A stretch of 64,000 nucleotides of DNA, taken from contig CALQYS010000001.1 in the NCBI GenBank assembly GCA_943348755.1, positions 69,963 to 133,962 on the forward strand, written 5' to 3'. Each line of letters begins with the position of its first letter. Position 1 is the first letter of the stretch. The notes beneath the pieces were generated by a model that was not told the DNA's origin, did not search any database, and saw nothing but the letters and a program-made list of their open reading frames with translations. Below, in pieces: positions 4,477-44,975 of this stretch. Both the position numbers and the translations under genes were made by a program. The DNA comes from Candidatus Nomurabacteria bacterium. GTDB lineage: Bacteria > Patescibacteriota > Minisyncoccia > Phycocordibacterales > UBA9973.

Positions 4477-5043
4477 ATGATGAATTTAGAATCAAAAATA
4501 GAAGCTATACTTTTCTGGAAAGGGGAACCAATGTCACGCAAAAAGCTGGCAGAAGTTTTGAAAGTTGGTGAGCTTGAAATAAACGAAGGGATAGAAAAAC
4601 TGAAAGAAAATTTAAAACAGAGGGGGATAGTATTAATAGAAAAGGAAAATGAAATCGCTCTCGGCACAGCGCCGGAACTTTCAGATTTGATTGAAAATTT
4701 ACAAAAAGAAGAATTAAATAAAGATCTTTCAAAAGCAAGCCTGGAAACCTTATCAATAGTTTTATATAAAAATGGCGTCAGTCGAGCGGAAATAGACTAT
4801 ATCAGAGGAGTAAACTCTGGTTTTACTTTGCGCGCTTTATCTATCCGCGGATTAGTAGAAAGAATTACCGATCCTAAAGACAACAGGCGTTTCATCTATA
4901 AGCCAAGTTTTGAACTCTTGTCCTACATGGGCGTACAATCAGTGACGGAACTTCCTGACTATGCGGAAGTCCTGGGTTCTATCGATATCGCCGCGAAAAG
5001 TTTAGAAGAGGAATCTAATAATGAAGAAACAGGTACAAACTAA
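4477..5043 (+). CDS. scpB: Segregation and condensation protein B
   Basis: MMNLESKIEAILFWKGEPMSRKKLAEVL... is a ScpB winged-helix N-terminus. Start placed at the internal Met pair rather than the upstream ORF start. Confidence 0.8.
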   Translation: MMNLESKIEAILFWKGEPMSRKKLAEVLKVGELEINEGIEKLKENLKQRGIVLIEKENEIALGTAPELSDLIENLQKEELNKDLSKASLETLSIVLYKNGVSRAEIDYIRGVNSGFTLRALSIRGLVERITDPKDNRRFIYKPSFELLSYMGVQSVTELPDYAEVLGSIDIAAKSLEEESNNEETGTN

Positions 5044-6754
5044 AAATTGTCAAAACTGTAAAAATGACTTCGTAATAGAGCCGGATGATTTTGGTTTTTA
5101 TGAAAAAATAAAAGTTCCACCACCGACATTTTGTCCAGAATGTCGAAATCAGCGACGGCACTCCTGGAGAAATGACACTTCTTTATATAGTAGAACGTGT
5201 GATTTATGTAAAAAATCTGTAGTGACAATTTATTCTAAAGAATCAAGTGTGACTGTCTACTGTAATAAATGTTGGTGGGGAGACGGATGGGATCCCCTAA
5301 AGTATGCTCAAGATTATGACTTTTCTCGACCTTTTTTTGAACAGTTCAAAGAGCTCTCGTTAAAGGTTCCACATCTAGCTTTAGTGAATGATGATGGCAT
5401 CGCGAGCATGAATTGTGAATATACACAAGATTTTTCGTTTGCAAAAAATTGTTACATGGTTTTTATTGGATGGAAAGTTGAAAATGTTATGTATAGCTAT
5501 TACACTTCTGCTGGTAAAGACATGGTGGACTGCTTAGATATAAAATCAAAAAATGATTTTTTATACGAATGCATGCGATGTGCTACTTCGTATAGATTAA
5601 AATACTCTCAACAGTCAAAAAATTGTATAGATTCTCAATTTCTTTTTAATTGTATGAATTGTACGGATTGTTTTATGTGTACAATGCTTGTTGGTAAGAA
5701 ATATTTTTTTAAAAACAAACAATATTCTAAAGAAGAATATGAAAAAATATTAGAGAGTTATAAACTAGATACATTTAGTGGGGTAAAAAGAGCTCAGAAG
5801 GAGTACGATGAGTTCATCTTAAAATATCCTAAACGATACGTTTATGTTTTTAACAGTAAGGGTTGTATAGGAGATGCCATCTCGTATTCGAAAAATTCAC
5901 AATTTTGTTTTAACGTTAAAAAATCAGAAAATTGTAAGTGGGTAGATAATTCTGATTCCCCAAAAGATTCATATGATATGTCGACTGGGGGTGAACTCAG
6001 CGAATGCTACGAAGATATAACCTGTGATCATTCAAGCCGTAATTTATTTGGAATTTTTTCCTGGAAAAGTCAGGACATGGAATATACTCAGCATTGCCAT
6101 TCTTCCAAATCACTTTTTGGCTGTGTAGGTTTAAGAAATAAAAAATATTGCATTTTTAATAAACAATATTCCAAAGAGCAGTATGAAATACTGGTAGAAA
6201 AAATTAGAAAACAAATGGCAGAATTGCCGTATAAAGATGCTAATGGAATTGTATATAAATATGGAGAATTTTATCCTGCAGAACTATCGTATTTTGGCTA
6301 TAACGAAACAATAGCAAGTGAACGTTTTCCTTTAAGGAAAAATGAAGCTATTTCCAGAAATTTAAACTGGCAAGATAAGGTCCAAAAAACCACTGGCAAG
6401 GAAACTCTTAGGCCAGAAAATATTCCCGATAGCATAAACGAGGTAGGAGAATCTATATTAGACGAGGTACTGGCATGTATTGATTGCACAAGAAATTATA
6501 AAATTGTACCGAACGAGTTTATTTTCTACAAAAAAATGAGTGTTCCGATACCCAGGAGGTGTTTTTATTGCCGGCACGACGCCAGACTCAAGCGTCGCAA
6601 TCCCTTTAAGCTTTGGCATCGAAAATGTATGTGCGACAAGAGGGGGCATGCTAATCATGAAGGAAAATGTGAAATAGAGTTTGAAACTACTTACGCTCCG
6701 GAGCGTCCAGAAATTGTTTATTGCGAAAAATGTTATCAAGCAGAAGTATACTAG
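5021..6754 (+). CDS. Cysteine-rich protein, paralog A (about 35 Cys; N- and C-terminal zinc-ribbon modules; family unknown)
   Basis: 577 aa. N-terminus CQNCKNDFVIEPDDFGFYEKIKVPPPTFCPECRNQRR plus three more CxxC pairs. Central periodic [DN]C..C repeats. C-terminal CIDC...RRCFYCRH...YCEKCYQAEVY. Paralogous to 35888-37555 and 37603-39264. Start overlaps the scpB 3' end by 23 nt. Confidence 0.75.
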   Translation: MKKQVQTKNCQNCKNDFVIEPDDFGFYEKIKVPPPTFCPECRNQRRHSWRNDTSLYSRTCDLCKKSVVTIYSKESSVTVYCNKCWWGDGWDPLKYAQDYDFSRPFFEQFKELSLKVPHLALVNDDGIASMNCEYTQDFSFAKNCYMVFIGWKVENVMYSYYTSAGKDMVDCLDIKSKNDFLYECMRCATSYRLKYSQQSKNCIDSQFLFNCMNCTDCFMCTMLVGKKYFFKNKQYSKEEYEKILESYKLDTFSGVKRAQKEYDEFILKYPKRYVYVFNSKGCIGDAISYSKNSQFCFNVKKSENCKWVDNSDSPKDSYDMSTGGELSECYEDITCDHSSRNLFGIFSWKSQDMEYTQHCHSSKSLFGCVGLRNKKYCIFNKQYSKEQYEILVEKIRKQMAELPYKDANGIVYKYGEFYPAELSYFGYNETIASERFPLRKNEAISRNLNWQDKVQKTTGKETLRPENIPDSINEVGESILDEVLACIDCTRNYKIVPNEFIFYKKMSVPIPRRCFYCRHDARLKRRNPFKLWHRKCMCDKRGHANHEGKCEIEFETTYAPERPEIVYCEKCYQAEVY

Positions 6755-22208: not shown

Positions 22209-22209
22209 T

Positions 22210-22731: not shown

Positions 22732-22777
22732 TTGCTCTATCTTATCATTTTTTTAATTTAAAACAACCTAAAAACTA

Positions 22778-22826
22778 GCTTAAAACGAAAAGGACCCTGC
22801 ATCGCGCGATGCGCGCAATGCAGGGT
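22778..22826 (-). terminator. Intrinsic terminator (GC-rich hairpin plus U-tract) after the high-GC ORF
   Basis: Hairpin CCCTGCATCGCGCG-at-GCGCGCAATGCAGGG (14-bp stem, one mismatch) followed on the minus strand by UCCUUUUCGUUUUAAG. Confidence 0.5.
22781..22794. repeat. Direct repeat copy 1: TAAAACGAAAAGGA (identical 14-mer at 23765-23778)
   Basis: Exact 14/14 identity between the U-tract regions of the two terminators flanking the high-GC block. Confidence 0.7.
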
Positions 22827-22897
22827 ATCCTTGGTCGATCAGACGATTTCTCGTCCGGCCCAGAATCTACGTCTGAGCTCGGTGATGTGAGGCAGGC

Positions 22898-23566: not shown

Positions 23567-23723
23567 GCGTTTGTTTTTGTTGTATGTTTCTGATGACCAT
23601 CACGCGAACCTAAGTGGGTCCGTTTGTTGTGTGACAGTCAGCCAAATTACGATGTATTTACATGCATAATCTCGCCGACTGCCACAAATTTCACATCAAT
23701 TTTAAAGAACAAATAACTACGTT

Positions 23724-23751
23724 ATATTACATTTTTTTGCTATTTTGTCAA
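23724..23751 (-). promoter_or_regulatory. Sigma70-like promoter TTGACA-16-TAATAT oriented toward the high-GC ORF
   Basis: Minus strand reads TTGACAaaatagcaaaaaaatgTAATAT; ORF start about 150 nt downstream. Confidence 0.4.
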
Positions 23752-23764
23752 TATTGGATGGGTC

Positions 23765-23778
23765 TAAAACGAAAAGGA
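23765..23778. repeat. Direct repeat copy 2: TAAAACGAAAAGGA
   Basis: Identical to 22781-22794. Confidence 0.7.
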
Positions 23779-23807
23779 GCCGGCATACGATTAGAACGTA
23801 GTCCGGC
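23765..23807 (-). terminator. Intrinsic terminator after the small-peptide micro-operon
   Basis: Hairpin GCCGGcaTACG-attagaa-CGTAgtCCGGC followed on the minus strand by UCCUUUUCGUUUUAG. Confidence 0.45.
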
Positions 23808-23852
23808 TTCTCCTTGAGAGTTAATTAGTAACCCCCACAACTGTTTCTCGGT

Positions 23853-24026
23853 TCACGCCGAGTACATGTTCAGGAACAAGACGAGAATGCCCGTTCCTAG
23901 ATACACCAAACCTAAACCCATCCCAGTCACGAGGACTGGGAAGAGGATGGGGTGTTTCCTCCACCACAGGCGAAGCGCATACAAATGCAGCGTCTCGTCG
24001 ACCATCAACATTAGTTCTTCTTTCAT
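23853..24026 (-). CDS. Small hydrophobic peptide 3 (57 aa)
   Basis: Hand-translated: MKEELMLMVDETLHLYALRLWWRKHPILFPVLVTGMGLGLVYLGTGILVLFLNMYSA. One TM. Below the 60-aa ORF-track cutoff. Confidence 0.35.
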   Translation of the reverse strand: MKEELMLMVDETLHLYALRLWWRKHPILFPVLVTGMGLGLVYLGTGILVLFLNMYSA

Positions 24027-32234: not shown

Positions 32235-32972
32235 TTAATATGCCAATGCTGTATCGTTATTTACACTTCTGACAGCTTGATTATAATAATATTTAACTCT
32301 ATCTAAAAAATGTGATAAAGAATTAGGATCCACATTTTCATAGCCAAATTCATATAGTGTATTATTTAATCTTTCCAAATTTCTAATTTCTACATGTTCT
32401 ATGGGTACTGCCTTGATTAAATTATCCATATCCCCGAAAACGAAATCTATCTCTGTTGGCTCATCTTTAGTTAAAATAAAGAAAGGTACATCATCTTTAT
32501 AAATTTCAATTCCCTCATGCGCTGCTTTTAAGCCTTCAGTAAAAAATTCTTCCAGAAATCTATCTAAATTAGAAAATTCTTTTATTTTTGGTCTACCAAA
32601 GCTTTCTACCGTGACCCTTCTGTGATTTTTGCTTCCAATACATATTTGATTATCTTTAAAACCCGTTGTCATCAATATACTCTCATTATCTTCACCTATT
32701 CTAAATGTTAGGAACACCCTTAAACCAGCCTTTTTTGCTCGAGAATAATTTTCAAATGCAAAGCTAGCCCTTTGAGTCGCACTACGCCACTCATTTGCTA
32801 AATATTTTTTTATTATAAATCTTTTTTTATGACCACCGATTTCAACCACTGCGTCAAAAATATTTCCGAAATTTCCTCCGTTAATTTTCTTTTCACTAAT
32901 TATTTCTACTTCAGTTTTCCCCCCAGTATCTTTTCTGAAAGAAAACCCAGTTGGTTCAAATTCGTTACTCAT
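32235..32972 (-). CDS. Hypothetical protein with protein-kinase-like motifs, embedded in the pur operon
   Basis: 245 aa. NGGNFGNIFDAVV resembles a GxGxFGxV glycine loop, followed by KRFIIKK (VAIK-like lysine) and a later IDFVFGD (DFG-like). This is reading of motifs only, not a confirmed fold. Confidence 0.55.
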   Translation of the reverse strand: MSNEFEPTGFSFRKDTGGKTEVEIISEKKINGGNFGNIFDAVVEIGGHKKRFIIKKYLANEWRSATQRASFAFENYSRAKKAGLRVFLTFRIGEDNESILMTTGFKDNQICIGSKNHRRVTVESFGRPKIKEFSNLDRFLEEFFTEGLKAAHEGIEIYKDDVPFFILTKDEPTEIDFVFGDMDNLIKAVPIEHVEIRNLERLNNTLYEFGYENVDPNSLSHFLDRVKYYYNQAVRSVNNDTALAY

Positions 32973-32984
32973 TTTTTTATTATC

Positions 32985-33596
32985 CTATAATTTTCCCAAA
33001 ACGTCCACATATAATTTATTTTCTTTTTTCTTAAGCCTTGAGTATAAAGATTCCACATTATCATTTTCTTCTACTTTTTCAAAAACTCTGCCTAAAACTG
33101 GCCCGAAATCAAAGTTTAAGGTCAAAAAGTGGATAGAGGAGCCGGCGAAGGTAGATTTTTGGTCTAAAAAGTTCTGGATAGCCTTAGTGGCGAGCATCCC
33201 TTTATTCCAAAGTGCCTTTGTGCCGTCTGGATTCTGTATTTCACCATTCGTAGTGTCTGGGATAAGCCCTGGGTGCAAATTCAAGATTTTATTTGGAAAA
33301 GCGGTGATGACTTCATTTAGAATTATTTTTTTCCAGCCAGCAAGGCACATGTAGTCGGGATTTATTTTTTGTAAAAGTGGAAGTAAAGTTTCCTTCTTCG
33401 AACATATTTCTATTTTCAGATTATGCTTTCTGGCTCGCTCCAACCCTGGAGTATTTTCCTTATCAGAGATCACAGCCGAGATTTCGGCATTAATTTTTCC
33501 AGATTCAACTCCGTCAATTATTGCTTGCAGGTTTGTGCCAGTGCCGGCATCAGAAATAAGAATGACAAGTTTCTTTTTAGTCTTTTGGGACATCAT
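32985..33596 (-). CDS. purN: GAR formyltransferase
   Basis: KLVILISDAGTGTNLQAIID N-terminus; formyltransferase fold; overlaps purF by 20 nt. Confidence 0.9.
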   Translation of the reverse strand: MMSQKTKKKLVILISDAGTGTNLQAIIDGVESGKINAEISAVISDKENTPGLERARKHNLKIEICSKKETLLPLLQKINPDYMCLAGWKKIILNEVITAFPNKILNLHPGLIPDTTNGEIQNPDGTKALWNKGMLATKAIQNFLDQKSTFAGSSIHFLTLNFDFGPVLGRVFEKVEENDNVESLYSRLKKKENKLYVDVLGKL

Positions 33597-35025
33597 AATT
33601 TATCTCTTTTTCTCTTTCGTGTATTGGTATCGGATAAACTCCATCAAAGGACGCAAGAGAAAATCTAGATTTTGGCAGTCCGGTAGCCGCTATCATGCCC
33701 TCGATAGAGAGATATGAGACGGATGTTGCCCCCAAGAAATCCTTTATTTCTTTCATTGTCTTGTGCGAGGCGATAAGCTCTGATTGATTTGGGGTGTCAA
33801 TCCCATAAAAGTCTGGGAATTTTATCGGGGCAGAGCTGACCAAGAAGTGCACTTCTTTAGCACCAGCATCGAAAAGCATTTTTACGATTTGTTTACTTGT
33901 GGTTCCACGAACTATAGAATCATCCATCACGGCGATTTTTTCCCCTTCAATCACTTTTCGAAGTGGGCTTAGCTTCATCCTCACTTTTTCTGCGCGTAAT
34001 TCTTGAGTGGGCTCGATGAAGGTGCGGTTGATGTAGCGGTTTTTAGAAATGGCCATTTCAAATGGGATGCCTGACTCTTCTGCATAGCCTATAGCAGCTG
34101 AAATAGCTGATTCCGGCACTGGGATGATCATATCAACCTCATTTATACCGTGTCTGTAGTGCTTTTTGGTCTCTCGGGCCAGCATGCGGCCGAGGTTTTT
34201 CCTTACTTCATATACTGGTCTGTCTAACATCACACTGTCGTAGCGGGCAAAATAAACAAACTCAAAAATATCAAATTTAGGCTTAGCCTTTGCCACTTTT
34301 TTGCTTTTGACCACGATTTTACCCTTGCTTCTTTGGACGATTACCATTTCTCCTGGTTCTATTTCTCTGACAAATTTTGCTCCAAGCGTGTCTAGCGCAC
34401 ATGTCTCAGAACAAATTATTATCTCTTCGCCCTTTTTACCTAGGACCAAGGGACGAATCCCGCAAGGATCACGGAATCCGACCAAGATGTCCAAACCAAG
34501 TGCTACACAAGAAAATGCCCCAGTGAAAAGCGGATACGTCCTTGCGATAGCATCCGGGAGAGATTGGCCCTTTTTCATATACACGGCGATGGCCTGCGTC
34601 ATGAGCTGGGAGTCAGACATGTCTTTCGTCAGTTCGTTGTTCTTTTTTAAGAATTTAACCAATTTTTCGATACTAGGCAGATTGCCATTGTGCCCCAAAG
34701 CGAAAAGATTATCAAAAAGAAAGGGCTGAGCATATTCGACGTGGTTGCCGTTTGAAGTGGAGTAGCGGTTGTGTCCGATCGCAGCAAAACCTGGGAGCTT
34801 TTTTAAAATTTCTTCGGTGTAAATTTGGCTCACTAATCCTTCATTTTTATGTAAGCGAAGCTTGTTGCCATCAGTTGTGGCAATGCCAGAGTGTTCTTGT
34901 CCACGATGTTGAAGAGAAAATAGTCCGAAGTAAGTCTCTCTAGTTATTCTATTTTCCTTTTCCAGCGCTGGAGAATCAATATTTCCAAAAATTCCAAAAA
35001 CCGCGCACTTTTCGTTAAGATCCAT
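33577..35025 (-). CDS. purF: Amidophosphoribosyltransferase
   Basis: CAVFGIFG Ntn-amidotransferase catalytic Cys after a short propeptide; PRTase domain with VMDDSIVRGTT. Confidence 0.95.
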   Translation of the reverse strand: MDLNEKCAVFGIFGNIDSPALEKENRITRETYFGLFSLQHRGQEHSGIATTDGNKLRLHKNEGLVSQIYTEEILKKLPGFAAIGHNRYSTSNGNHVEYAQPFLFDNLFALGHNGNLPSIEKLVKFLKKNNELTKDMSDSQLMTQAIAVYMKKGQSLPDAIARTYPLFTGAFSCVALGLDILVGFRDPCGIRPLVLGKKGEEIIICSETCALDTLGAKFVREIEPGEMVIVQRSKGKIVVKSKKVAKAKPKFDIFEFVYFARYDSVMLDRPVYEVRKNLGRMLARETKKHYRHGINEVDMIIPVPESAISAAIGYAEESGIPFEMAISKNRYINRTFIEPTQELRAEKVRMKLSPLRKVIEGEKIAVMDDSIVRGTTSKQIVKMLFDAGAKEVHFLVSSAPIKFPDFYGIDTPNQSELIASHKTMKEIKDFLGATSVSYLSIEGMIAATGLPKSRFSLASFDGVYPIPIHEREKEINYDVPKD

Positions 35026-35029
35026 TTTA

Positions 35030-35857
35030 TTATTTAAAATATTTAACTGCGTTTTTAAAAATCTGCAATCCTGCTCCTTCTTTTTTCACCCCGCCATGGA
35101 GGGGCAAGCCTTCCTTATTTATCTGCCACAGTGGACTTTGATGTGAAAACATTGCTCTCTCAGGATGTGGCATCATCCCTAAAACCCTCCCATTATATGC
35201 TAAAACTCCCGCAATGTCATGGTCCGAGCCGTTTGGGTTATGTTCTAGATTTTGAAACTTGGCTATCTCTCCTTTTGTATAAGTAAAGGCGATCTGCCCG
35301 CCTTTTTTCATCTTTCGGTATTCTTTTTCAGAAATGACGTAGCGACCCTCGCCGTGCGCTATCGGTAACGATATTTTCTTGATGCCTGCGAGCCATGGGC
35401 TACTCACCCCGCCATGGCGGGGTGAACCCGTAACTTTTAGATCTACCCAACGATCCATATAGCGTCCGTTTTTGTTGTAGGTTAGAGCCCCTGGTAATAT
35501 TCCCAAGTTGGTAATTATCTGAAAACCATTACAAATGCCGATGACGAGGGTGTCCCGAGATAGAAATTCCTCGAGTTCTTTTGATAAATGATTTTTAAAC
35601 TTATTCGCGAAAGCTTTTCCACTGCCTGTATCGTCCCCATAGGAAAATCCTCCAGGGAAAGCCAAAATTTGATACTGAGAAAGCATTTGGGGCTTGGCGA
35701 TTAAGTCGTTTATATGCACGATGTCCGCCAGCCCTCCCGCACTCTCAAAAGCGAACTTCGTTTCTTCTTCGCAATTGAGTCCATATCCGGATAAAATTAT
35801 AATTTTTGGTTTTTTCATGTGATTTAATTCCCTCACCCCTTGCTTTCCCCTCTCCAT
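35030..35857 (-). CDS. purQ: FGAM synthase glutaminase subunit
   Basis: KIIILSGYGLNCEEET...CNGFQ class I GATase signature; 275 aa. Confidence 0.9.
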   Translation of the reverse strand: MERGKQGVRELNHMKKPKIIILSGYGLNCEEETKFAFESAGGLADIVHINDLIAKPQMLSQYQILAFPGGFSYGDDTGSGKAFANKFKNHLSKELEEFLSRDTLVIGICNGFQIITNLGILPGALTYNKNGRYMDRWVDLKVTGSPRHGGVSSPWLAGIKKISLPIAHGEGRYVISEKEYRKMKKGGQIAFTYTKGEIAKFQNLEHNPNGSDHDIAGVLAYNGRVLGMMPHPERAMFSHQSPLWQINKEGLPLHGGVKKEGAGLQIFKNAVKYFK

Positions 35858-35887
35858 TTAAGTAAATGGAGAGGGGCTGGGGAGAGG

Positions 35888-37555
35888 TCAATACACCTCT
35901 TGCTGGTAACATTTCTCGCAGTAAATTTGGTATATTTTCTGATCCTCGGGTCTATAAGATGTTTGTATCAGATTACCACATTTAGCACAATTTCCACTCC
36001 ATAAGTCACGCGGGTTTCTTTTACTCATTCTGGCTTCATGTCGGCAGTTAAAGCACTTAGCTGGCAGGGCTAATCTATTCTTTTTATAAAAATTCACCTC
36101 TCTATTTATTAATCTGTAATTTTTCTCGCAATTTTTACAAGTTAGAATTTCATTAACTAATGCATCGCTGTATTCTTCAGGATTTTTAGGTAAATTTTCG
36201 TATTCTATTGTCCCCTGTCCAGTTGTGCTTGGTATATTATCTTTCCATTTAAAACCTTGCCTCGTAGCTTCCTCTTTTGTAATTGGCATGTACTCATTTA
36301 CTATCGCTTCATTATAAGCAAATGGGCTAATAAATGCTGGAAAGAATTTACCCCAGTCTCCACTTTCTTTCATCTGCGCGATTATTTTTTCTTTTAGCGT
36401 AAAGTATTCTTCCTTTGAATATTGTTTATTTAAAATACAGTAAGATTTCTTGCGTAGACCATAACATCCAAAAACTTCATTACAGTTGTGACAATTATTT
36501 GAGTAATAAATATTATGGCAATCTACTATCATCTCAGAGGCTATGGCTATGTTGCTGTTGCTTATAGTCATAGCCTGATAACATTCAGATAGATCGCTGG
36601 TGAAAGAAATATCATACGAATCTATGGCTTCTCTAACTGTAAAGCAATGCCTAGAGTTTTCACCGCTTTTTATATCAAAGGAATCATGTACATTGTGTGC
36701 ATTATATATATGGTTACCAGAAACATCATTATTGTGAGAGCCAAAGAAAGAGCGCTGAGGAGTTATTTTACGTAAACTCTCCATCTCTTTTAAAATATAT
36801 TCGATAGAAGACTTTTCATTTAGGGGGTGTTCTAATAAGAATTTTTTGTATTCTTCTTTTGTAACTTGTTTATTGAAAATATGATAGGACTTGTTTACTT
36901 GCCCCACGCATCCGATGCAATTCAAACAGTTTCGACAATCAAAAAGTCCAATGGAGTCTACACAAGCTTCACATTCTTGTGAATAGAAAAGTTTCGCTGA
37001 GCCTAGGCAATCAACACAGTCGTAACAAGATTCTGATTTAAATAAATATAAATTATCAATAGAATCTCGGCAATTCCAAACTATGTGTCCATAATCGCAG
37101 TCTTCGTTCTCAAGAGCACCAAAAAGTAAATAGCAATTTTTACAGTCAATTATTTGATTAGTGTAATCGCAATTAACACTTCTAACGGCATTACGAGCCG
37201 GATGTGGTACAGCGTTAAAAAGAAGAGCGAGTTGCTTAAAAAATGACTTACTTAGATCAACATCTACAGCATAATCCATGGGTTCCCAGCTATCCCCCCA
37301 CCAGATCTCATTATCATAAACTGGGAATTTTGTATCTTCGTTGTACATCGAGATGATCATTTTACCGGATTTACTGCAGGGTCTTTTGTATAAAGTCTTA
37401 AAATTCCTAAAGGATGCACGAAGTTGCTGACGACATTGTGGGCACTGTTCCGGGGCAGGTATTCCCATCTTTTCATAAAAGCCAAAATCATCCGGCTCGA
37501 TGACGAAATCTTCGTTGCACTTTTTACATATTCGATTTTCGCTCTTGTGTTCCAT
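35888..37555 (-). CDS. Cysteine-rich protein, paralog B
   Basis: 555 aa. N-terminus CKKCNEDFVIEPDDFGFYEKMGIPAPEQCPQCRQQLR; C-terminus ...CFNCRHEARMSKRNP...YCEKCYQQEVY. Same architecture as paralogs A and C; third N-terminal zinc ribbon is degenerate. Confidence 0.75.
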   Translation of the reverse strand: MEHKSENRICKKCNEDFVIEPDDFGFYEKMGIPAPEQCPQCRQQLRASFRNFKTLYKRPCSKSGKMIISMYNEDTKFPVYDNEIWWGDSWEPMDYAVDVDLSKSFFKQLALLFNAVPHPARNAVRSVNCDYTNQIIDCKNCYLLFGALENEDCDYGHIVWNCRDSIDNLYLFKSESCYDCVDCLGSAKLFYSQECEACVDSIGLFDCRNCLNCIGCVGQVNKSYHIFNKQVTKEEYKKFLLEHPLNEKSSIEYILKEMESLRKITPQRSFFGSHNNDVSGNHIYNAHNVHDSFDIKSGENSRHCFTVREAIDSYDISFTSDLSECYQAMTISNSNIAIASEMIVDCHNIYYSNNCHNCNEVFGCYGLRKKSYCILNKQYSKEEYFTLKEKIIAQMKESGDWGKFFPAFISPFAYNEAIVNEYMPITKEEATRQGFKWKDNIPSTTGQGTIEYENLPKNPEEYSDALVNEILTCKNCEKNYRLINREVNFYKKNRLALPAKCFNCRHEARMSKRNPRDLWSGNCAKCGNLIQTSYRPEDQKIYQIYCEKCYQQEVY

Positions 37556-37602
37556 TTCTATTTTACTTTATTTAAATAAATTACTTTACTAAACTAAAGT
37601 AG

Positions 37603-39264
37603 CTAGTATATCTCCTGTTGATAACATTTCTCACAGTATACTATTTCTGGACGATCTGGCGAATAGCTTGTTTCGAATTCATTCATACAGTCTTGATTCA
37701 TGCATTTTTGATGCCAAAGCTTTCTTTCACCAGCAAGTTTTATTCTCTTTTCATGTCTACAATTTGGACATTTTCGTGGTATAGGCAAGCCCATCTTTCG
37801 GTAAAGATTGAGCTCGTAAGGCACTATTTTGTAATTTTTTCCACATTCACAAACCAAAACCTCTTTCATTATTTCGTCTTTTACATCATCTATGTTGTCT
37901 GGCAAAAGATCCATATCTACGGTTTCCTGCTTGTATGTGTTTGTATTTTTTTCCCACCAAGGTAGAGAAAGTTTTTCACAATCCTCCTTTGTTAATGGAA
38001 AATATTCTTGAGCTACTGTCTCATTATATCCAAAATTACTTATACCGATCGGGAAAAATTCTCCCCATTCGCCAGTTTTTTTCATATGTTCTATTATTTT
38101 ATTTTTAAGGATGAGATATTCTTCTTTGGAATATTGTTTGTTTAAAATACAATATTTCTTTTTTGACATGCCTATACAACCGAATAAATCAGAAGAATTG
38201 TTGCATTTATCGCAATACCAAATGTCATTCGAGTAATGTGAGGCATTGCAGAAGCCGGAGCTGCCTAAATTCAAAGTGCTTATTAGTTCGATATTAAAAG
38301 ATGGTTTATATAAGGAAAAATCTAGGTCATAACATTCTTTCGCGTCCAATACATCGCATAGATATTTTCCATTTTCAGCATTACTGACATCGAAACTCTC
38401 TTTTACATTCTTACAATTAAAAAGATCATCTCCTGTGCAGTTCGTACTATTTATTAGATTAGCGAACTTCGTAATCGCTTTTTTGGAATACTTCCCGAAT
38501 TCTTTTTTCAGATTTTCTAAAGCAGAAAAAGATTTTTTATTAAAGCCCGAAACAATTTTATTGTATTCTTCCCTGCTGTATGGTTTATTAAAAATATGGT
38601 ATGACTTATTTCTCAAGTTCCAGCACCCAAAACAATCGGTACAACTCCTACAATCATACATAAAATGACAATTGCTGCAGTCCGTGCACTTATTTAGAAA
38701 AGATGAGCCGTAGATTTTATGGCAATTCACGCATTCGTAATTTAATTCAGAATTGTAAACAAAAGAGCAATCTATGCAGTCCTTGGAGTATTTAATAAAT
38801 TTACAAAAGTAGCAATATTCGTTTTTCTCTCCAGCTATATCAAAGTAACAATAATTATCATCTCCGCAATAGCTTACATAATCGCTATTTTTACAATTTA
38901 CGATGTCCAGTGAAAGTGTCGGGACTTTTTTATAAAGATCTTTAAATTGTTCAAAAAATGGCTTGGAAAAATTAAAATCTTTCCCATACGAAAGCGGGTT
39001 AGACTTATCGCTCCACCAGCAGGATGGACACCAGACGGCTTGCTCCTTATCTCCATGATAATATGAAATTATTTTTTGATTACATGAATTACAATTACGC
39101 CAGTAAAAAACCCTTTCGTTTCTGATGGCGAGTCTGCGCTGATGCCGGCATTCTGGGCAAAATGTCGGTGGTGGGACTTTTATTTTTTCATAAAATCCAA
39201 AATCATCCGGTTCGATCACGAATTCCTTTTTACAATTCTGGCAAATTTTATTTTCCGCTTTCAT
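37603..39264 (-). CDS. Cysteine-rich protein, paralog C
   Basis: 553 aa. N-terminus CQNCKKEFVIEPDDFGFYEKIKVPPPTFCPECRHQRR is near-identical to paralog A. Start codon overlaps the purL stop (TAATG). Confidence 0.75.
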   Translation of the reverse strand: MKAENKICQNCKKEFVIEPDDFGFYEKIKVPPPTFCPECRHQRRLAIRNERVFYWRNCNSCNQKIISYYHGDKEQAVWCPSCWWSDKSNPLSYGKDFNFSKPFFEQFKDLYKKVPTLSLDIVNCKNSDYVSYCGDDNYCYFDIAGEKNEYCYFCKFIKYSKDCIDCSFVYNSELNYECVNCHKIYGSSFLNKCTDCSNCHFMYDCRSCTDCFGCWNLRNKSYHIFNKPYSREEYNKIVSGFNKKSFSALENLKKEFGKYSKKAITKFANLINSTNCTGDDLFNCKNVKESFDVSNAENGKYLCDVLDAKECYDLDFSLYKPSFNIELISTLNLGSSGFCNASHYSNDIWYCDKCNNSSDLFGCIGMSKKKYCILNKQYSKEEYLILKNKIIEHMKKTGEWGEFFPIGISNFGYNETVAQEYFPLTKEDCEKLSLPWWEKNTNTYKQETVDMDLLPDNIDDVKDEIMKEVLVCECGKNYKIVPYELNLYRKMGLPIPRKCPNCRHEKRIKLAGERKLWHQKCMNQDCMNEFETSYSPDRPEIVYCEKCYQQEIY

Positions 39265-42188
39265 TATTGTGAATTAGAAAATTTATGATAAATGGTATTT
39301 AATTTTTTAACATTTGTTTCAACTATTTTGTTTTTGCCATTCACTATAGTTATTTTCCCACCCTTCTCTACTTTGCCGAGTTTTGTGTAGGAGATTCCTA
39401 CAAGCACTTTTTCAAATTCTTTTGTGTTTTTAGGAGAAACAGAAACAAGAATCCTTCCTTGGCTTTCAGAGAAAAGTTTAGCATCTATTGTTGATGCGCT
39501 TCCAGCCAGATCTTTGAGGTTCACCCCACACCCCACATTTCCTCCGACACAGGCTTTAGCGAGTGCTATGCCCAAGCCTCCAGATGTCACAGAAAGAGAA
39601 GAGGCCACTAATTCTTTTTCGATACATTTTTCTAAAGCAAGATAAACTTTTAGATTTTTCTCTAAATTAACTTTCGGAACATTATTCCCAACTCCACCCA
39701 ACATTTTAAAATATTCACCACCTCCAAGCTCGTCTTTCGTTTCTCCAAGTAGATAAATTACATCACCACCGTTTTTGAATTCAGGCGAAACGGTCTTGTA
39801 CAAGTCAGGCATCACGCTGATAGCCGAGATGAGTAGCGTCGGCGGTATAGATATAGCCACCGGATTACCTTTTTCATCATAACCTTTAAAGTCGTTGAAC
39901 ATGCTGTCCTTGCCGGAAATAAAGGGCGTGCCGTAGCCCACAGCATAGTCGTAGCAGGCTTTGACGGATTCTACGAGCTGGTAAAGCCTTTTTGGATCAT
40001 TTGATGAGCACCAGCAGAAGTTGTCGAGTATGGCTAGGTGCTTGAGTGCACCACCGGCTGCCACGATGTTTCTGACAGCAGTATCGAGCGCGCAGGCTGC
40101 CATGTGATAAGTGCTGATGTCTCCATATGAAGGATAGGTGCTGGATGAAAGGACGACTGCTTTATTTGAGCTCAAAACAGGGCGGAAAACTTGAGCATCA
40201 GTGTTGATGCGTCCAGCACCTGAAAGTGGTTTCAAGACGGATGATGCCTGCACTTCATGGTCGTATTGTTGTGAAATAAAAGAAAATCCACCAATGTTTT
40301 TTTCTCCAAGTAAATTTTCTAAAACTTTTGTTCGAGACATACCCTTTGGCATTTCTGGCTCAGGATTTTTTTGCTCTACTTTGGTCGTAGTCAGATGGTG
40401 TTTCGGCAGTCCATTGTGCAGAAATTCCATTTCCATGTCCATGATTTTTTTACCATGCCATTCAATTATTACTTTTCCAGAATCTGTAAATTCACCTATT
40501 ACTGTTGATTCTACTCCCCTACTTTCCATTAATTTTTGGAACGCAGGCCATTTGTCTTTTGGGACAGATAGAGTCATGCGTTCTTGTGATTCGGATATCC
40601 AAATCTCCCATGGTGTAAGTCCTGGGTATTTCAAAGGTACTTTTTCTAGGAAAACTTTTACTCCGCCACACTCCCTTGCCATCTCTGCCACCGAAGAGGA
40701 AAGTCCTCCTGCCCCATTATCTGTGATGCTATTATATAGACCCATATCACGAGCTTCCTTTACTATTGCATCGCTTAATTTTTTTTGAGTTATCGGGTCA
40801 CCGATTTGCACAGCAGTAGCTGGTGAAGTTGAATCTATTTTAACTGACGAAAAGGTGGCTCCATGAATACCATCTAGCCCCACTTTCCCACCAACCATTA
40901 CCACATAGTCACCATTTTTCGCGCCTTTTTCGTGTGAAAATTTATTTTGTACTTTTTTTGGAATCAAGCCCACAGTACCAGCAAAGACTAAGGGCTTACC
41001 TCTAAATCTGTCGTCGTATTTTATAAATCCAGATAAGGTTGGAATTCCAGAACAATTTCCTCCGACATTGATACCTTTTATTACGCCATCCATAATCCTC
41101 TTCCCGGATAGCATCGGCTGGGTAAGGTTTTTATCTCGGAAAAATTTTCTTTCGTCTTCTGGATATCCAAAACAAAATCCATATGTATTAACTACGGGTT
41201 TAGCGCCTAAGCCAAATCCTATAGCATCACGATTAACTCCTCCTATGCCAGTAACTGCTCCGCCAAATGGATCGAGCGCCGAAGGGCTGTTGTGTGTCTC
41301 CACCTTGTGCGTCACTAGATAATTTTCATCAAAAACTATGCCGCCAGCATTATCAGAAAATACAGAAACACAAAAATCATCTTTTCCTTTTTGTTTGCGT
41401 ATTAAATTTGTAGCACCCTTGATGTATGTTTTATATAGGCCATCTTTAACCTGTAGCCCTTCTGCATCTATCGAGTTAGCAAAAATAGTATGCTTGCAGT
41501 GTTCAGACCACGTCTGCGCCAGAGACTCTAGTTCTATATCTGTCGGGTCCCTTTTTAATGTTTCAAAATATGCTTTGATAGCTTTCATGGAAGCTAGATC
41601 AAGCGCGAGTGGGCCACGGCGTGTGCCTGATTCATCCATTATTCCTTCTCCACCTATTTTTATAAGCTCGTCGTCGGGTGCTGATAGAGGAACGGTAACC
41701 ACGGGGGTTCTTTTATTTAAAATTACCTCCGGAACTTTATTTAGAAAATTTATTTTCCTGTTTTTAACTTCTACGATCGTCGCTTTCTCTATCAGCGGAT
41801 TATACATAGCGTTCGCAATTTCTTTCACCTCTTCCGCTTTGCCAGAAACAAGGAAAATCTTTGAGGTATAAAAGTTAAGAGGTTTGTCTGCTTTTAGTTT
41901 AAATAAATCCGTCGCTATTTCTTTGACCGTATGAGCCACATTGTCAGTCACTCCAGGTAGCAAGCTTATTTCAATGGCAAAATTAAATTTCTCTATTTTC
42001 GGAGATTCATCTATAAAAGACTCCTCTAAAATAGGGTTCGTGAGTGCTCGAGCCAGTGTTTCAAGTTCTTTTTTTGAAAATTCAGAATCGATCAGATAGG
42101 AGTCAATCTGTTTTGCCCCGTTTTTTAGCCCGCCTGCAACGTTGTGCGTAGCACTTCGGGCAGGCATCACATATATGCGCGAAATCAT
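39264..42188 (-). CDS. purL: FGAM synthase II with N-terminal PurS-like domain(s) fused (PurS-PurL)
   Basis: 974 aa. Small-PurL core starts near LSAPDDELIKIGGEG...WSEHCKHTIF. The preceding roughly 165 aa contain a PurS-like unit (GKAEEVKEIANAMYNPLIEKATIVEV) and a second degenerate one. Confidence 0.9.
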   Translation of the reverse strand: MISRIYVMPARSATHNVAGGLKNGAKQIDSYLIDSEFSKKELETLARALTNPILEESFIDESPKIEKFNFAIEISLLPGVTDNVAHTVKEIATDLFKLKADKPLNFYTSKIFLVSGKAEEVKEIANAMYNPLIEKATIVEVKNRKINFLNKVPEVILNKRTPVVTVPLSAPDDELIKIGGEGIMDESGTRRGPLALDLASMKAIKAYFETLKRDPTDIELESLAQTWSEHCKHTIFANSIDAEGLQVKDGLYKTYIKGATNLIRKQKGKDDFCVSVFSDNAGGIVFDENYLVTHKVETHNSPSALDPFGGAVTGIGGVNRDAIGFGLGAKPVVNTYGFCFGYPEDERKFFRDKNLTQPMLSGKRIMDGVIKGINVGGNCSGIPTLSGFIKYDDRFRGKPLVFAGTVGLIPKKVQNKFSHEKGAKNGDYVVMVGGKVGLDGIHGATFSSVKIDSTSPATAVQIGDPITQKKLSDAIVKEARDMGLYNSITDNGAGGLSSSVAEMARECGGVKVFLEKVPLKYPGLTPWEIWISESQERMTLSVPKDKWPAFQKLMESRGVESTVIGEFTDSGKVIIEWHGKKIMDMEMEFLHNGLPKHHLTTTKVEQKNPEPEMPKGMSRTKVLENLLGEKNIGGFSFISQQYDHEVQASSVLKPLSGAGRINTDAQVFRPVLSSNKAVVLSSSTYPSYGDISTYHMAACALDTAVRNIVAAGGALKHLAILDNFCWCSSNDPKRLYQLVESVKACYDYAVGYGTPFISGKDSMFNDFKGYDEKGNPVAISIPPTLLISAISVMPDLYKTVSPEFKNGGDVIYLLGETKDELGGGEYFKMLGGVGNNVPKVNLEKNLKVYLALEKCIEKELVASSLSVTSGGLGIALAKACVGGNVGCGVNLKDLAGSASTIDAKLFSESQGRILVSVSPKNTKEFEKVLVGISYTKLGKVEKGGKITIVNGKNKIVETNVKKLNTIYHKFSNSQ

Positions 42189-42200
42189 GTTATAGCTATC

Positions 42201-43424
42201 TTATATGATTTTCATTTCTTTGCCAACTTCACCAAGTATTTTCAGGGCTTTATCAATATGTGTCTTAGTATGAGCGGCGGAAATTTGAAAACGCAGTCGG
42301 GCGGTATTTTCTGGCACAACTGGGAACCAAAGGCCTACCACATAGAGTCCCTTTTCTAGAAGTTTTTTACTCATTTCTTGAGTCTTGCCCGCTTCACCTA
42401 GCATCACTGGTACTATAGGATGCTCGCCTTCTAAAACATTGAAACCGAGTTTTTTCGCGCCATTCCTGAAATATTCGGAGTTTTCTCTTACTGTGGTGAG
42501 GAGCTCTGGATGTTCTTTAAGCAAATCAAGCGCTTTGATCGAAGCGATGACGACAGATGGAGGCACAGAGTTAGAGAAAAGATAGGTTCGAGATTTTTGT
42601 CGAAGAAGCTCGATGATTTGTTTTTTACCTGCGACGTATCCACCCACGGCTCCGCCGAGAGCTTTACCGAAAGTTCCAGAGAGGACGTCTATCTTTCCAT
42701 GCAGGCCGAAGTGTTCTGGCGTGCCCGCACCAGTCTTACCGAGGACACCTATCGAATGAGCGTCGTCCACAAAGAGTAATGCCTCGTATTTTTTTGCTAA
42801 TTTTAAAATTTTTGGCAGATCCGCCAGATATCCTTCCATCGAAAAGACCCCATCAGTCACGATCATTTTGAAACGATAACCCTTGTCCTTGTCTTCCTCA
42901 AGCATTTTTTCAAGCATTGCGAGGTCACCATGAGTATAGATTCTTTTCACTAAATTTTCTTTTTTACAGAGCTTGAAAGCGTCGATAATGCTCGCGTGGT
43001 TGAGCTCATCGCTATATATGGCGTCGATGTGTTCGGTGCTACCCAAGGCTTCATTCACAATGGTTGCGAAAAATCCTAGATTTGACATGAAGTTTGTAGA
43101 ATAAAGTATGCTATCTTCTACTCCCAAGAATTCGGCTAATTTTTTTTCTAGAATTTTATGTATTGTCTCTGTGCCAGAAATGAATCGAACAGAAGAAAGC
43201 CCAAAGCCGTATTCTTTTATTGCTTTTTCAGCTGATTTAGTAATTTCAGGATGATTTGCTAATCCCAGATAGTTATTTGAAGCAAACATCAGCACTTTTT
43301 TCCCAGCAATAGAAACTTCCGGTCCTTGCGCACCCATGAGTTCTCTTTCAACTTTAAATTTACCTGCTTGCTTCAAGTTCTCGAGTTCTTTTTCTACATC
43401 TTGTATGAGTTTTTGGGAATACAT
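42201..43424 (-). CDS. kbl: 2-amino-3-ketobutyrate CoA ligase (glycine C-acetyltransferase)
   Basis: Class II aminotransferase/AONS family (SNNYLGL, PLP-lysine region SGTFGKALGG); paired with tdh two genes upstream. Confidence 0.8.
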   Translation of the reverse strand: MYSQKLIQDVEKELENLKQAGKFKVERELMGAQGPEVSIAGKKVLMFASNNYLGLANHPEITKSAEKAIKEYGFGLSSVRFISGTETIHKILEKKLAEFLGVEDSILYSTNFMSNLGFFATIVNEALGSTEHIDAIYSDELNHASIIDAFKLCKKENLVKRIYTHGDLAMLEKMLEEDKDKGYRFKMIVTDGVFSMEGYLADLPKILKLAKKYEALLFVDDAHSIGVLGKTGAGTPEHFGLHGKIDVLSGTFGKALGGAVGGYVAGKKQIIELLRQKSRTYLFSNSVPPSVVIASIKALDLLKEHPELLTTVRENSEYFRNGAKKLGFNVLEGEHPIVPVMLGEAGKTQEMSKKLLEKGLYVVGLWFPVVPENTARLRFQISAAHTKTHIDKALKILGEVGKEMKII

Positions 43425-43426
43425 AT

Positions 43427-43765
43427 TTATTTATTGAAATCTATTCTAAATTCTTTGCCGTGATCTTTAAATCCAAGCTTTTCATACCACACATGAGCTT
43501 CAAAATTTTTATAACGACTAGTACAAATTAATTTGTAGCAATTTTTTTCTTTGGCCTCAGCTATCGCCGCTTCGACTAATTTTGTGCCTGTGCCCTTTCC
43601 ACGATTCCCTTCTTTTACAAAAACGTTCTCCAGAAAACCGAAAGGCTCTTCATGCAAGTCGTTATACATAATGTACAAATAAGCCGAACCTAGCATGGCG
43701 CCATTTTCTTCGGCTTTAATTTTTATAGCATAGCTTTTATTTTCCTTGCTTAATTTGATGTCCAT
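43427..43765 (-). CDS. GNAT-family N-acetyltransferase
   Basis: 112 aa; NRGKGTGTKLVEAAI acetyl-CoA-binding motif. Confidence 0.7.
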   Translation of the reverse strand: MDIKLSKENKSYAIKIKAEENGAMLGSAYLYIMYNDLHEEPFGFLENVFVKEGNRGKGTGTKLVEAAIAEAKEKNCYKLICTSRYKNFEAHVWYEKLGFKDHGKEFRIDFNK

Positions 43766-43766
43766 G

Positions 43767-44975
43767 TTATCCGTTGATCTTAAATATAATCTTTGGATTT
43801 TCGTTCATTGCTTTTTCGAAGCTCTCTGGTGTGAAATCTTTAAATTCCAATATCGTGCCCTTACCTTTTTTGAGAATGACATTCCAGATTGCGTCGGCTA
43901 TGCCGTTGGTTTTATCATTTAAGATACGTTGAGCTGTCTGCCATGTTTTAAATATCTCGCGTCCGATGATGTTGTGAATGGTGAGTCCACGAGTGACAAG
44001 GCGAGAGAATTTCGGAATAGTTAAATCTCCGTCTTTGATACCGAAGAAGATGACATGTCCGCCTCTTCTGGTACTATCTATCGAATTATTTACCGAAGAA
44101 AAGGCTCCAGCCATCTCCATAGATACGTCTACACCTTTGCCATAAGTGAGTTTCATGATTTGATCAACGACAGATTGATCTGCTTCCCAACCATGCTCTT
44201 TTTTGGTTTTCGGGATCAAAATAGTCTCGTGGGCTCCAAGCTCTTTTGCCATCTTTAGATTTTCTGGCAGGACGTCTACGGCGATTATTTTCGCCGCTCC
44301 GAAATTCCGCGCGAGCAAAATAGAGAAGAGTCCAATCGGTCCGCAGCCGAATATTGCCACTCGCTGTCCTCGGAAGTCAGTCACGGTGGTGGCATGGACG
44401 GCATTGCCAAAAGGATCATAGATAGCAGCCAGCTCTGGGCGCAGACGTGTCTCATCTACTGCCCACAGATTTTTAGCTGGGATCTTCACATATTCGGCGA
44501 AAATGCCATCAATTGAAATACCGAGGATAGATTCATTTAAGCACACATGTGCTTCACCCACTCTACATTGGTAGCACTTGCCGCACGTCACATGAGAGTC
44601 TCCGGAAACCAGACTGCCCACTTCTATCTTTGCTTTGTTGTTTGGGTCGGGGTCGTAATACAAACTTTTCACCATTGAGCCGGCTTCCACAATTTCACCG
44701 ACGAACTCATGTCCAGTGATGCGCATATCTTTCTTTTCTTTCGCAAGCGAACCATGCACAAGGTCTTTGAAAGCAGCTCTGTGCCAAAGTCCTCTGTCTG
44801 ATCCGCACACTCCCGCATAGCGTATTTTCAAAATTACTGAAGTTGCATCCGCAGGATTTTTCTTTTCATCCAAGACCGGCATCGGAACGTCCCGCATCAC
44901 AAAACCGCGAGTGCCCTCCCAGCCATCCCTTTTCAAATCTATTGTTAAAGCTTTTACAAGTTTTTTCGTAGCCAT
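43767..44975 (-). CDS. tdh: L-threonine 3-dehydrogenase-like zinc alcohol dehydrogenase
   Basis: GHEFVGEIVEAG and structural-zinc CGKCYQCRVGEAHVC motifs; Rossmann GCGPIGL. Confidence 0.8.
   Translation of the reverse strand: MATKKLVKALTIDLKRDGWEGTRGFVMRDVPMPVLDEKKNPADATSVILKIRYAGVCGSDRGLWHRAAFKDLVHGSLAKEKKDMRITGHEFVGEIVEAGSMVKSLYYDPDPNNKAKIEVGSLVSGDSHVTCGKCYQCRVGEAHVCLNESILGISIDGIFAEYVKIPAKNLWAVDETRLRPELAAIYDPFGNAVHATTVTDFRGQRVAIFGCGPIGLFSILLARNFGAAKIIAVDVLPENLKMAKELGAHETILIPKTKKEHGWEADQSVVDQIMKLTYGKGVDVSMEMAGAFSSVNNSIDSTRRGGHVIFFGIKDGDLTIPKFSRLVTRGLTIHNIIGREIFKTWQTAQRILNDKTNGIADAIWNVILKKGKGTILEFKDFTPESFEKAMNENPKIIFKING

Follow-up and report, generated by a model that had tools for sequence, protein, structure and literature searches.

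Two cysteine-rich proteins encoded between purL and purQ very probably belong to a new multigene family, apparently one confined to Patescibacteria

Two paralogous cysteine-rich proteins between purL and purQ

In a Candidatus Nomurabacteria genome (GenBank assembly GCA_943348755.1) two large cysteine-rich open reading frames (ORFs), here called A and B, lie between purL and purQ, and we analyzed them in the window, that is, the whole 64,000-nucleotide stretch of contig CALQYS010000001.1 (positions 69,963 to 133,962; coordinates below are those of the window). We are confident that A and B represent a new multigene family, found as far as we can tell in the Patescibacteria only, and that they are not a component of the pur pathway. 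The Patescibacteria (candidate phyla radiation, CPR) represent a large share of bacterial diversity, are mostly uncultured and have tiny genomes usually reported to be about 1 Mb, and a family that takes up from one to at least ten genes of about 1.7 kb in genomes of this size is plainly of importance to these bacteria. Its conservation is close to that of PurL and PurQ, but no function has been described for it, and neither a Pfam match above threshold nor a structural relative was found. Its architecture, its habit of residing in core operons and its links to TrmB-like and type IV coupling protein (T4CP)-like genes provide testable entry points. Its interest for CPR biology is therefore moderate to high, and that for purine metabolism is lower as the link there is positional only. 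The genes and junctions of the locus are as follows.

35030..35857, minus strand: purQ, with a Pfam GATase_5 match; probably translated from the ATG at 35818
35847..35876, minus strand: palindrome in the A-purQ spacer, perfect over 14+14 nt, an RNA hairpin
35888..37555, minus strand: family gene A, an ORF of 555 aa with 34 Cys; orthogroup g1; second N-terminal ribbon degenerated
37603..39264, minus strand: family gene B, an ORF of 553 aa with 42 Cys; all four terminal CxxC...CxxC ribbons present
39262..39266, minus strand: TAATG overlap of the purL stop and the B start (CATTA on the plus strand), 1 nt, with the geometry of translational coupling
39264..42188, minus strand: purL, 974 aa, with Pfam FGAR-AT linker, AIRS and AIRS_C matches; its stop overlaps the B start
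5021..6754, plus strand: third paralog C, 577 aa, found by tblastn and in the ORF list, directly after scpA/scpB

As the initial annotation had described from the sequence, A and B are paralogs, with 39% identity over their full length (E 2e-137), cysteine contents of 6.1% (34/555) and 7.6% (42/553), respectively, and the motifs that it quoted are present. Paralog C is 38-42% identical to A and B and shares 23 nt with the end of scpB. A gap of 47 nt separates B from A, as first noted, while the value of 30 nt given for the A-purQ spacer holds only for the longest purQ ORF; homologous PurQ proteins align from the Met at 35818, so that the real spacer is probably 69 nt. Co-transcription of A and B with purL and purQ, which had also been proposed, is plausible given that the genes are on the same strand, that neither the B-A nor the A-purQ spacer contains a terminator-like site on the minus strand, and that the start/stop overlap is seen again in relatives. 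The earlier view that the PurL protein is a PurS-PurL fusion was not confirmed, as the first 200 residues of the 974-aa protein have no PurS match at E ≤ 1. The protein has the FGAR-AT linker typical of large PurL. We agree that neither A nor B is a missing pur enzyme, since no homology to a pur family was found in Pfam or NCBIfam.

The hairpin in the A-purQ spacer (minus-strand RNA, 35835-35895) has a predicted dG of -30.4 kcal/mol (z -4.1) and is not followed by a U-tract. The palindrome overlaps the first in-frame ATG of the purQ ORF and, within the window, occurs only once. Possible roles are in the processing or stability of the mRNA or in translational control of purQ. A search of the window for riboswitches and other RNA families gave two tRNAs only. 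There are no repeats flanking A and B and no target duplications, the only repeats being internal gene duplications and the one palindrome. Composition was also considered as a sign of foreign origin and gave no clear one: the GC content at third codon positions (GC3) of the family genes (0.28-0.34, compared with 0.33-0.45 in neighbors) is at the low end of the range of the genome and not beyond it, and their low overall GC content (low GC1) is due to amino-acid composition.

A large and slowly evolving family

Searches with A and B, thresholded at E ≤ 1e-50, matched 5,051 and 7,981 proteins, respectively, and a profile search of 1.84 billion representatives gave 5,156 matches at E ≤ 1e-3 and 2,150 at E ≤ 1e-30 (about 2,150 clusters at 50% identity). 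Almost all of the best 150 profile matches are 544-602 aa in length. Every named match is annotated as either ‘hypothetical’ or ‘zinc-ribbon domain containing’, the latter being the NCBI name (‘zinc-ribbon domain containing protein’) of some members, and all named matches but one are labeled as Patescibacteria/CPR or simply as ‘bacterium’. At least 592 loci were confirmed in species-representative genomes, with record titles that include Nomurabacteria/Paceibacteria, Harrisonbacteria, Peregrinibacteria/Peribacteria, Gracilibacteria, Abawacabacteria, Altimarinota and others. Some labels of ‘Saccharibacteria’ seem to be generic, since the pur operons on those contigs are about 73% identical to that of the window. 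There are from 1 to 10 copies per locus of about 13 kb, and one contig of 621 kb contains at least 10 tandem paralogs that are 31-57% identical to A.

Orthologs of A are 60-74% identical to it, and in the same contigs PurL is 66-75% and PurQ 74-79% identical, hence the family evolves about as slowly as its housekeeping neighbors. B has orthologs at 74-83% identity, and two of the three that were examined are in the purL-purQ slot. The two findings that were named at the outset as potentially fatal to the interest of these genes, membership of a known family of unrelated function and a pur linkage that is unique to this genome with poorly conserved ORFs, were thus not what we obtained: the ORFs are highly conserved and the linkage is found in 58% of related operons (see below).

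Protein architecture

The family proteins appear, from their sequences, to be soluble, cytoplasmic proteins of about 555 aa built with zinc ribbons. A sequence scan found neither a hydrophobic stretch resembling a transmembrane segment nor a hydrophobic N-terminus in them, in accordance with the first description. The modules of A are the following.

37310..37540, minus strand: N-terminal ribbon module, aa 6-82, with Zn1 (C10/C13/C38/C41) followed by the basic motif CR-x3-R-x3-RN; second ribbon lost
36830..37198, minus strand: solenoid 1 and cap helix, aa 120-242, Cys on a 3-residue register, ending in C207-x2-C210-x2-C213-x2-C216 and then K.YHIFNKQVTKEEY
36386..36748, minus strand: solenoid 2 and cap helix, aa 270-390, a duplicate of solenoid 1, ending in FGC364.G..K.YC373ILNKQYSKEEY
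36161..36361, minus strand: conserved linker, aa 399-465, GDWG.FFP..SPFAYNE..EY.P, with a predicted local distance difference test (pLDDT) score of 83-95
35909..36151, minus strand: C-terminal ribbon pair, aa 469-549, with Zn3 (C473/476/501/504) and Zn4 (C523/526/546/549)

In the family layout the protein begins with CxxC-x24-CxxC and CxxC-x17-CxxC and ends with CxxC-x24-CxxC and CxxC-x19-CxxC. The N-terminal block of ribbons that had been assigned to both proteins is complete in B but not in A, where the second ribbon has degenerated, and among 207 diverse members only about 38% keep ribbon 2. The cysteines of the other ribbons are well conserved in the same set (ribbon 1, 91-97%; ribbon 3, 74-97%; ribbon 4, 97-100%), and R42, R46, R505, G402, Y414, N415 and E486 are each conserved in at least 93%. 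In an alignment of 49 sequences (A1), R50, N51 and H506 are invariant. The linker has the family consensus GEWG.FFP..SPFGYNE..EY.P, in which G402, P406, Y414, N415 and P424 each show conservation of 93% or more, and the last 90 residues of A (aa 466-555) have a net charge of +8.

Both of the internal duplications that had been noticed in the sequence are supported by profile comparison. The ribbon pairs at the two termini are homologous to each other (hhalign probability 99.0%, E 3e-18), as are the two halves of the central region, each with its KEEY helix, to one another (99.3%, E 4e-20). Each central copy consists of Cys-rich repeats followed by a Cys cluster and the helix K.Y.I.NK.Y.KEEY, and the duplication has left a trace at the DNA level in the form of four related 55-nt segments, where direct repeats D1 mark the KEEY copies. 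The periodicity of the central cysteines is likewise real, since among the 207 members 94.8% of the distances from one Cys to the next in solenoid 1 are multiples of three, compared with an expected 33%; the value for repeat region 2 is 73%. The cap C207-x2-C210-x2-C213-x2-C216 is 85-97% conserved. Most other positions of the ladder are Cys in only 34-71% of members, where they alternate with Ser, and because they exchange so freely they fit better as small residues that fill a core than as metal ligands.

The AlphaFold2 (AF2) models of A (pLDDT 80.8, predicted template modeling score (pTM) 0.77) and B (pLDDT 87.2, pTM 0.86) are confident and concordant, place beta-hairpin and helix elements at the positions of the terminal ribbons and, as a check that had been suggested for the initial annotation, are consistent with duplicated solenoids and ribbons. 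In our reading the core is a pair of very narrow solenoids with an interior filled by small Cys and Ser residues. Each solenoid would be closed by a probable metal site, and as many as four putative structural Zn(Cys)4 ribbons would flank the pair.

The purL-purQ junction is a variable slot

Loci that were retrieved by way of the family are biased toward it, and for this reason a second scan was anchored on PurQ alone and was blind to the family. Collapsing this set at 97% nucleotide identity gave 66 distinct operons, of which 55 were informative, and orthogroups were defined by BLAST-based single linkage at 52%. In 32 of the 55 operons (58%) purQ is directly preceded by one to three family genes, and in 23 (42%) purL abuts it. 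The linkage to scpAB recurs as well, with the order scpA-scpB-C found again in five other loci where C orthologs remain behind scpAB, so that both neighborhoods proposed for checking are found repeatedly. The occupants of the purL-purQ slot belong to at least nine orthogroups, with g1 (the group of A) and g2 being the most common and the group of B being found by a B-based search, and they form arrays such as g3-g1-g4, g6-g1-g4, g3-g2, g6-g2 and g2-g8, together with B-A in the window. Many contigs have an ortholog of A, with 60-74% identity, between purL and purQ. The presence and absence of an insert are mixed among similar PurQ sequences (nearest-neighbor concordance, 29/63). The geometry of the junction is the same with or without an insert, as a 4- or 1-nt stop/start overlap is seen at 16 of 34 purL-to-family junctions and a 4-nt overlap at 17 of 25 direct purL-to-purQ junctions.

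Orthologs of A and B also reside elsewhere. Those of A with 50-58% identity are found between Mur ligases, after dnaJ and inside a 10-gene array, and an ortholog of B with 75% identity is part of a three-gene array between ileS and a gene for a zeta-toxin-like kinase downstream of argS. The family is also present in lineages and loci that have no pur genes. Taken together, the 23 empty junctions among 55, at least nine interchangeable orthogroups and the orthologs at other loci make a dedicated role in purine synthesis, which the initial annotation had thought conceivable, unlikely. The content of the slot is fluid and dispensable for the operon, though the genes in it are strongly constrained, and the variability of the slot is a caution against reading function from gene position. 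As to its history, we prefer an ancestral array of several genes that has undergone differential loss, with repeated replacement at the purL-purQ junction as the alternative.

Neighborhoods outside the purine operon

The immediate neighbors of family genes are diverse, with 117 Pfam families among 150 proteins; they are 81% co-directional, and the median gap is 37 nt. Four proteins of this neighbor set match Pfam VanY (D-Ala-D-Ala carboxypeptidase). Two kinds of partner recur. A TrmB-like helix-turn-helix protein of about 255 aa is encoded in 15 loci, in Peribacteria, Peregrinibacteria, Abawacabacteria, Gracilibacteria and some Paceibacterota, and its gene is mostly divergent from and immediately upstream of an array of two to five family genes. 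A P-loop ATPase of 480-870 aa that is VirD4/TraD/TrwB/HerA-like and has no transmembrane segment is encoded in 10 loci over two classes; in 8 of these loci its gene comes directly after the last family gene, and dnaJ follows it in four Paceibacteria loci. Examples of the complete module, which recurs in other Patescibacteria classes, are taken from loci L020-L082 and listed by locus and position within it.

L026:5079-12694: TrmB-like regulator, 2-5 family genes and ATPase
L055:3400-11618: the same arrangement
L071:219-9424: the same arrangement

Three of the ATPases (in L032, L053 and L070) carry a strong TIGR04272 ribbon (CxxC-x17-CxxC, E 1e-16). A recent survey counted 5,713 VirD4-like T4CPs in 2,918 Patescibacteria genomes, of which only 148 are near virB4, and its authors considered that these T4CPs may have been exapted (PMC12102498, 2025). 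The adjacency seen here suggests that arrays of the family are one possible context for such orphan T4CPs.

Nearest known systems

The remark that the family could not be recognized from its sequence was upheld by profile searches, which gave only sub-threshold matches at the termini. A matches PF13451 (zf_Tbcl) at aa 8-47 with 21.8 bits (cut-off 24; E 1.9e-4) and, with its C-terminal ribbon, PF23477 (zf_Tbcl_2) with 21.6 bits (cut-off 27) and TIGR04272 with 17.7 bits (cut-off 36). B has no match to these three models, C matches PF13451 at E 0.0097, and precomputed matches to the three are on record for some homologs. Neither A, B nor C has a match above cut-off in Pfam or NCBIfam, and the core of about 400 aa is not covered there at all. 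Two CxxC pairs with spacing of the zf_Tbcl type (about x17-25), as in a treble clef or ribbon, were found at both termini. The likeness to zf_Tbcl, zf_Tbcl_2 and TIGR04272 lies in the CxxC...CxxC spacing (x24, x17-19) and in a motif of the type F.I...D..FY.K...P.P..C..CR. These are, however, single domains of about 40-50 aa of function not known, while the family has four such modules around a core of about 400 aa.

Neither Foldseek nor an HMM search of PDB sequences revealed a significant relative, and a search of BFVD gave only local zinc-ribbon matches. No PADLOC family matched A, B or C at E ≤ 1, the only PHROGs match was a local one of 28 bits between the Cys repeat and phrog_15341 (whose function is not known there), and no relatives were found in the viral contigs of IMG-VR. 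The longer members (808, 601 and 602 aa) contain no extra Pfam domain, so no domain fusion was seen. The literature searched contained no published description of the family, and the CPR protein family survey has no mention that matches it (Méheust 2019). A paper on a ‘knotted solenoid’ was considered and set aside as it concerns Brevundimonas and is unrelated to the family.

Several known folds resemble parts of these proteins. The antifreeze protein of Tenebrio molitor (TmAFP; 1EZG, PF02420 AFP) is a Cys-laddered beta-helix with a 12-residue coil, but its defining traits are TCTxSxxCxxAx repeats with a TxT ice-binding face, secretion and disulfide bonds. The family has no TCT/TxT face and no signal peptide: A, B and C contain no TCT motif and zero or one TxT motif each and have no AFP match in Pfam, the identity to TmAFP is 11% over a match that spans only 71 of 555 residues, and disulfides are unlikely because the proteins are cytoplasmic. 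The hexapeptide-repeat left-handed beta-helix acyltransferases, the gamma-carbonic anhydrases and the pentapeptide-repeat proteins differ in coil length and sequence signature, and Pfam gave neither a Hexapep (PF00132 and related) nor a Pentapeptide match; the active-site residues at the trimer interface of hexapeptide-type enzymes are not identifiable in the family. The CxxC...CxxC geometry is shared with the treble clefs of LIM and His-Me (HNH) proteins. The resemblance of the C-terminal ribbon to the second LIM finger (E 0.25) and the BFVD matches to HNH proteins of phage (E about 1) are not significant, and neither an HNH-type Pfam or NCBIfam match nor the catalytic motif with its His and Asn is found in the family. 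The motifs of 4Fe-4S ferredoxins, radical SAM proteins and DnaJ zinc fingers (CxxCxxCxxxCP, CxxxCxxC and CxxCxGxG) are each absent from A, B and C, and no Pfam family of this kind matches.

Among host-associated bacteria the ankyrin and TPR proteins are expanded repeat-protein families. The present family resembles them in having many diverged paralogs per small genome, a solenoid-type binding scaffold and a repertoire that varies among relatives, but it differs in fold, in its housekeeping-like conservation of orthologs, in its location in core operons and in the lack of evidence for secretion. In the absence of a characterized family, a fold-level homolog or a published description we place it outside the known kinds, although its building blocks, ribbons and solenoids, are familiar.

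Proposed function and alternative explanations

We put forward the explanation that the family proteins would be zinc-stabilized binding or adaptor scaffolds. It is the leading explanation overall, and we hold it with evenly divided confidence. We propose that A and B are old paralogs that ride in the pur operon and would act outside both the chemistry of purine synthesis and its dedicated regulation. In this view each protein has five parts, which are a treble-clef/zinc-ribbon pair, two duplicated narrow beta-solenoids that are laddered by Cys and Ser and each have a Cys cluster and a KEEY cap helix, a linker, and a basic ribbon pair. The conserved ribbon pairs, with the basic-helix and linker elements, may let all members dock in the same way, either to nucleic acid or to a partner in common, for which the ATPase is a candidate, while the divergent faces of the solenoids may provide paralog-specific recognition of a ligand. 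This adaptor mechanism itself is offered tentatively, as a possibility suggested by the sequences. We further speculate that the family, the TrmB-like regulator and the soluble VirD4/HerA-like ATPase might form a system found throughout the Patescibacteria, in which the genome-specific proteins would be cargo or specificity adaptors of an exapted coupling-protein motor for the handling or delivery of macromolecules at the symbiont-host interface. We regard this wider system as rather doubtful; if true, it would give a role to thousands of orphan T4CP genes.

Several results weigh against the scaffold explanation or its extension. Confidence of the AF2 models in the two repeat regions is only 55-77, lower than elsewhere. 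The TIGR04272 and PF23477 matches of A (aa 520-553) are sub-threshold, and profiles made from the ribbons of the family do not match the ribbon of the ATPase; for the latter reason we treat the ‘shared domain’ link as weak. The loci behind the neighbor statistics are phylogenetically non-independent, and the window contains no TrmB-like or T4CP-like gene. Passive hitch-hiking does not explain why a single junction is occupied in 58% of operons, often with an exact stop/start overlap, and such high occupancy leaves room for an effect that is pur-related or position-specific.

The last point on occupancy is where an accessory factor of purine synthesis has to be considered, which could bind PurL/PurQ as an assembly, stabilizing or regulatory subunit of phosphoribosylformylglycinamidine synthase or be a metal or redox sensor that tunes the pathway. 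Such a factor would account for the position of the genes exactly between those of the two subunits. Apart from the occupied slot and the purL stop that overlaps a family start at 16 of 34 junctions, it can draw on the A and B orthologs of 60-83% identity that are mostly in this slot, on a Peregrinibacteria locus with the order purF-family-purD and on an extra copy between purN and purD in one operon. We nonetheless consider it improbable, given the 42% of equally related operons with no copy, the interchange, in zero to three copies, of at least nine non-orthologous paralogs that are only about 40% identical to each other, and the abundance of the family in loci and lineages without pur genes, in arrays of at least ten, with paralog C and many orthologs in unrelated operons. 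A role as metal or redox proteins, with Fe-S or multinuclear metal-thiolate clusters seated on the Cys ladders and the CxxCxxCxxC caps and serving in electron transfer, metal storage or buffering, would account for a Cys content of 5-8% on a strict register, for the conservation of the four-Cys cap (85-97%) and for AF2 confidence being lowest in the Cys-rich coils, as expected if the model misses a cofactor. That most ladder positions are Cys in only 34-71% and exchange freely with Ser argues against it, as do the absence of ferredoxin, radical-SAM and DnaJ-type motifs and of a Fer4 match in Pfam and the many diverged paralogs per genome, which are not expected of a simple storage role, and we judge it quite improbable.

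By analogy with the expanded families of repeat-protein effectors in other symbionts, the proteins might instead be effectors or cargo that a VirD4-like coupling ATPase and a patescibacterial type IV secretion system (T4SS) send to the host cell of the episymbiont. A T4CP-like ATPase directly after the array in 8 of the 10 loci that have one, over two classes, a repertoire that differs between related genomes and a basic C-terminal module would fit such a role. The ATPase has no transmembrane anchor, however, the orthologs are conserved like housekeeping proteins, which is atypical for effectors, and the C-terminus is a folded zinc ribbon in the AF2 models and not a disordered signal; tightly folded, metal-bound proteins are poor T4SS substrates. 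Most patescibacterial T4CPs are orphans without a known role, which is a further point in its favor, but in S. epibionticum the t4cp gene is non-essential for epibiotic growth (PMC12102498), and overall we consider this explanation unlikely. Still less probable is a selfish mobile cassette, in which genes of a homing type would insert between conserved operon genes and the treble clefs would be relics or variants of His-Me/HNH nucleases. Such a cassette would explain why close relatives have the same junction either empty or occupied by various paralogs, with its geometry kept, and there are weak, non-significant structural matches to phage HNH endonucleases and zinc-ribbon proteins. Yet there are no near-identical copies within or between genomes, the paralogs being 30-45% identical, purifying selection is strong, length is uniform, GC3 is within the range of the genome (at its low end), and HNH/His-Me matches in Pfam, catalytic motifs, flanking repeats and occurrences in viral contigs are all missing. 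An anti-phage defense module, in which diversified solenoid ‘sensor’ proteins would act with the HerA/VirD4-like ATPase, is suggested by the variable arrays of diverged paralogs and by weak matches of the ATPase to the mad8, HerA, DndH and SspH models. These matches reflect generic P-loop similarity, A, B and C have no match in PADLOC and no effector enzyme domain, and the setting in core operons and the slow evolution are at odds with defense, making it the most improbable of the explanations considered.

Other features of the purine supercluster and the window

The window contains a near-complete purine supercluster (about 18800-46850) with purB, purC, purM, purE, purH, guaA, guaB, purA, purD, purN, purF, purQ and purL together with glmS. 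It is unusual in that most Patescibacteria are reported to be without de novo nucleotide synthesis (Méheust 2019). Further features are these.

42201-44975, minus strand: genes for a tdh-like Zn-dependent alcohol dehydrogenase (Zn-ADH), a GNAT protein and a kbl-like aminotransferase, directly upstream of purL and in the same orientation
32235-32972, minus strand: 245-aa ORF between purN and purD, no Pfam/NCBIfam match, GC3 0.21
22898-23566, minus strand: 222-aa ORF between purE and purH, no Pfam match, in the most GC-rich stretch of the window (GC 0.50, 22001-24000)
6751-7596, minus strand: convergent ORF downstream of paralog C, overlapping the end of C by 4 nt

The tdh/GNAT/kbl trio also precedes purL in one relative (L169), and kbl precedes purL in four loci of the PurQ-anchored set (L100, L149, L165 and L167). 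The trio looks like a threonine-to-glycine feeder module that has been joined to the purine operon. The purN-purD junction, which holds the 245-aa ORF in the window, is empty in two relatives (L007 and L046) and has a family gene in another (L051), and is a second variable slot of the operon. PurF (33577-35025) is mostly 52-55% identical in L089-L168, where PurQ is 74-85% identical, and is 76-86% identical in a few contigs (L091, L101, L151 and L163), a pattern that points to the existence of two types of PurF, or to xenologous replacement, in operons whose synteny is otherwise kept. The convergent ORF is also syntenic downstream of the C ortholog in three other loci (L022, L033 and L058, a blast cluster).

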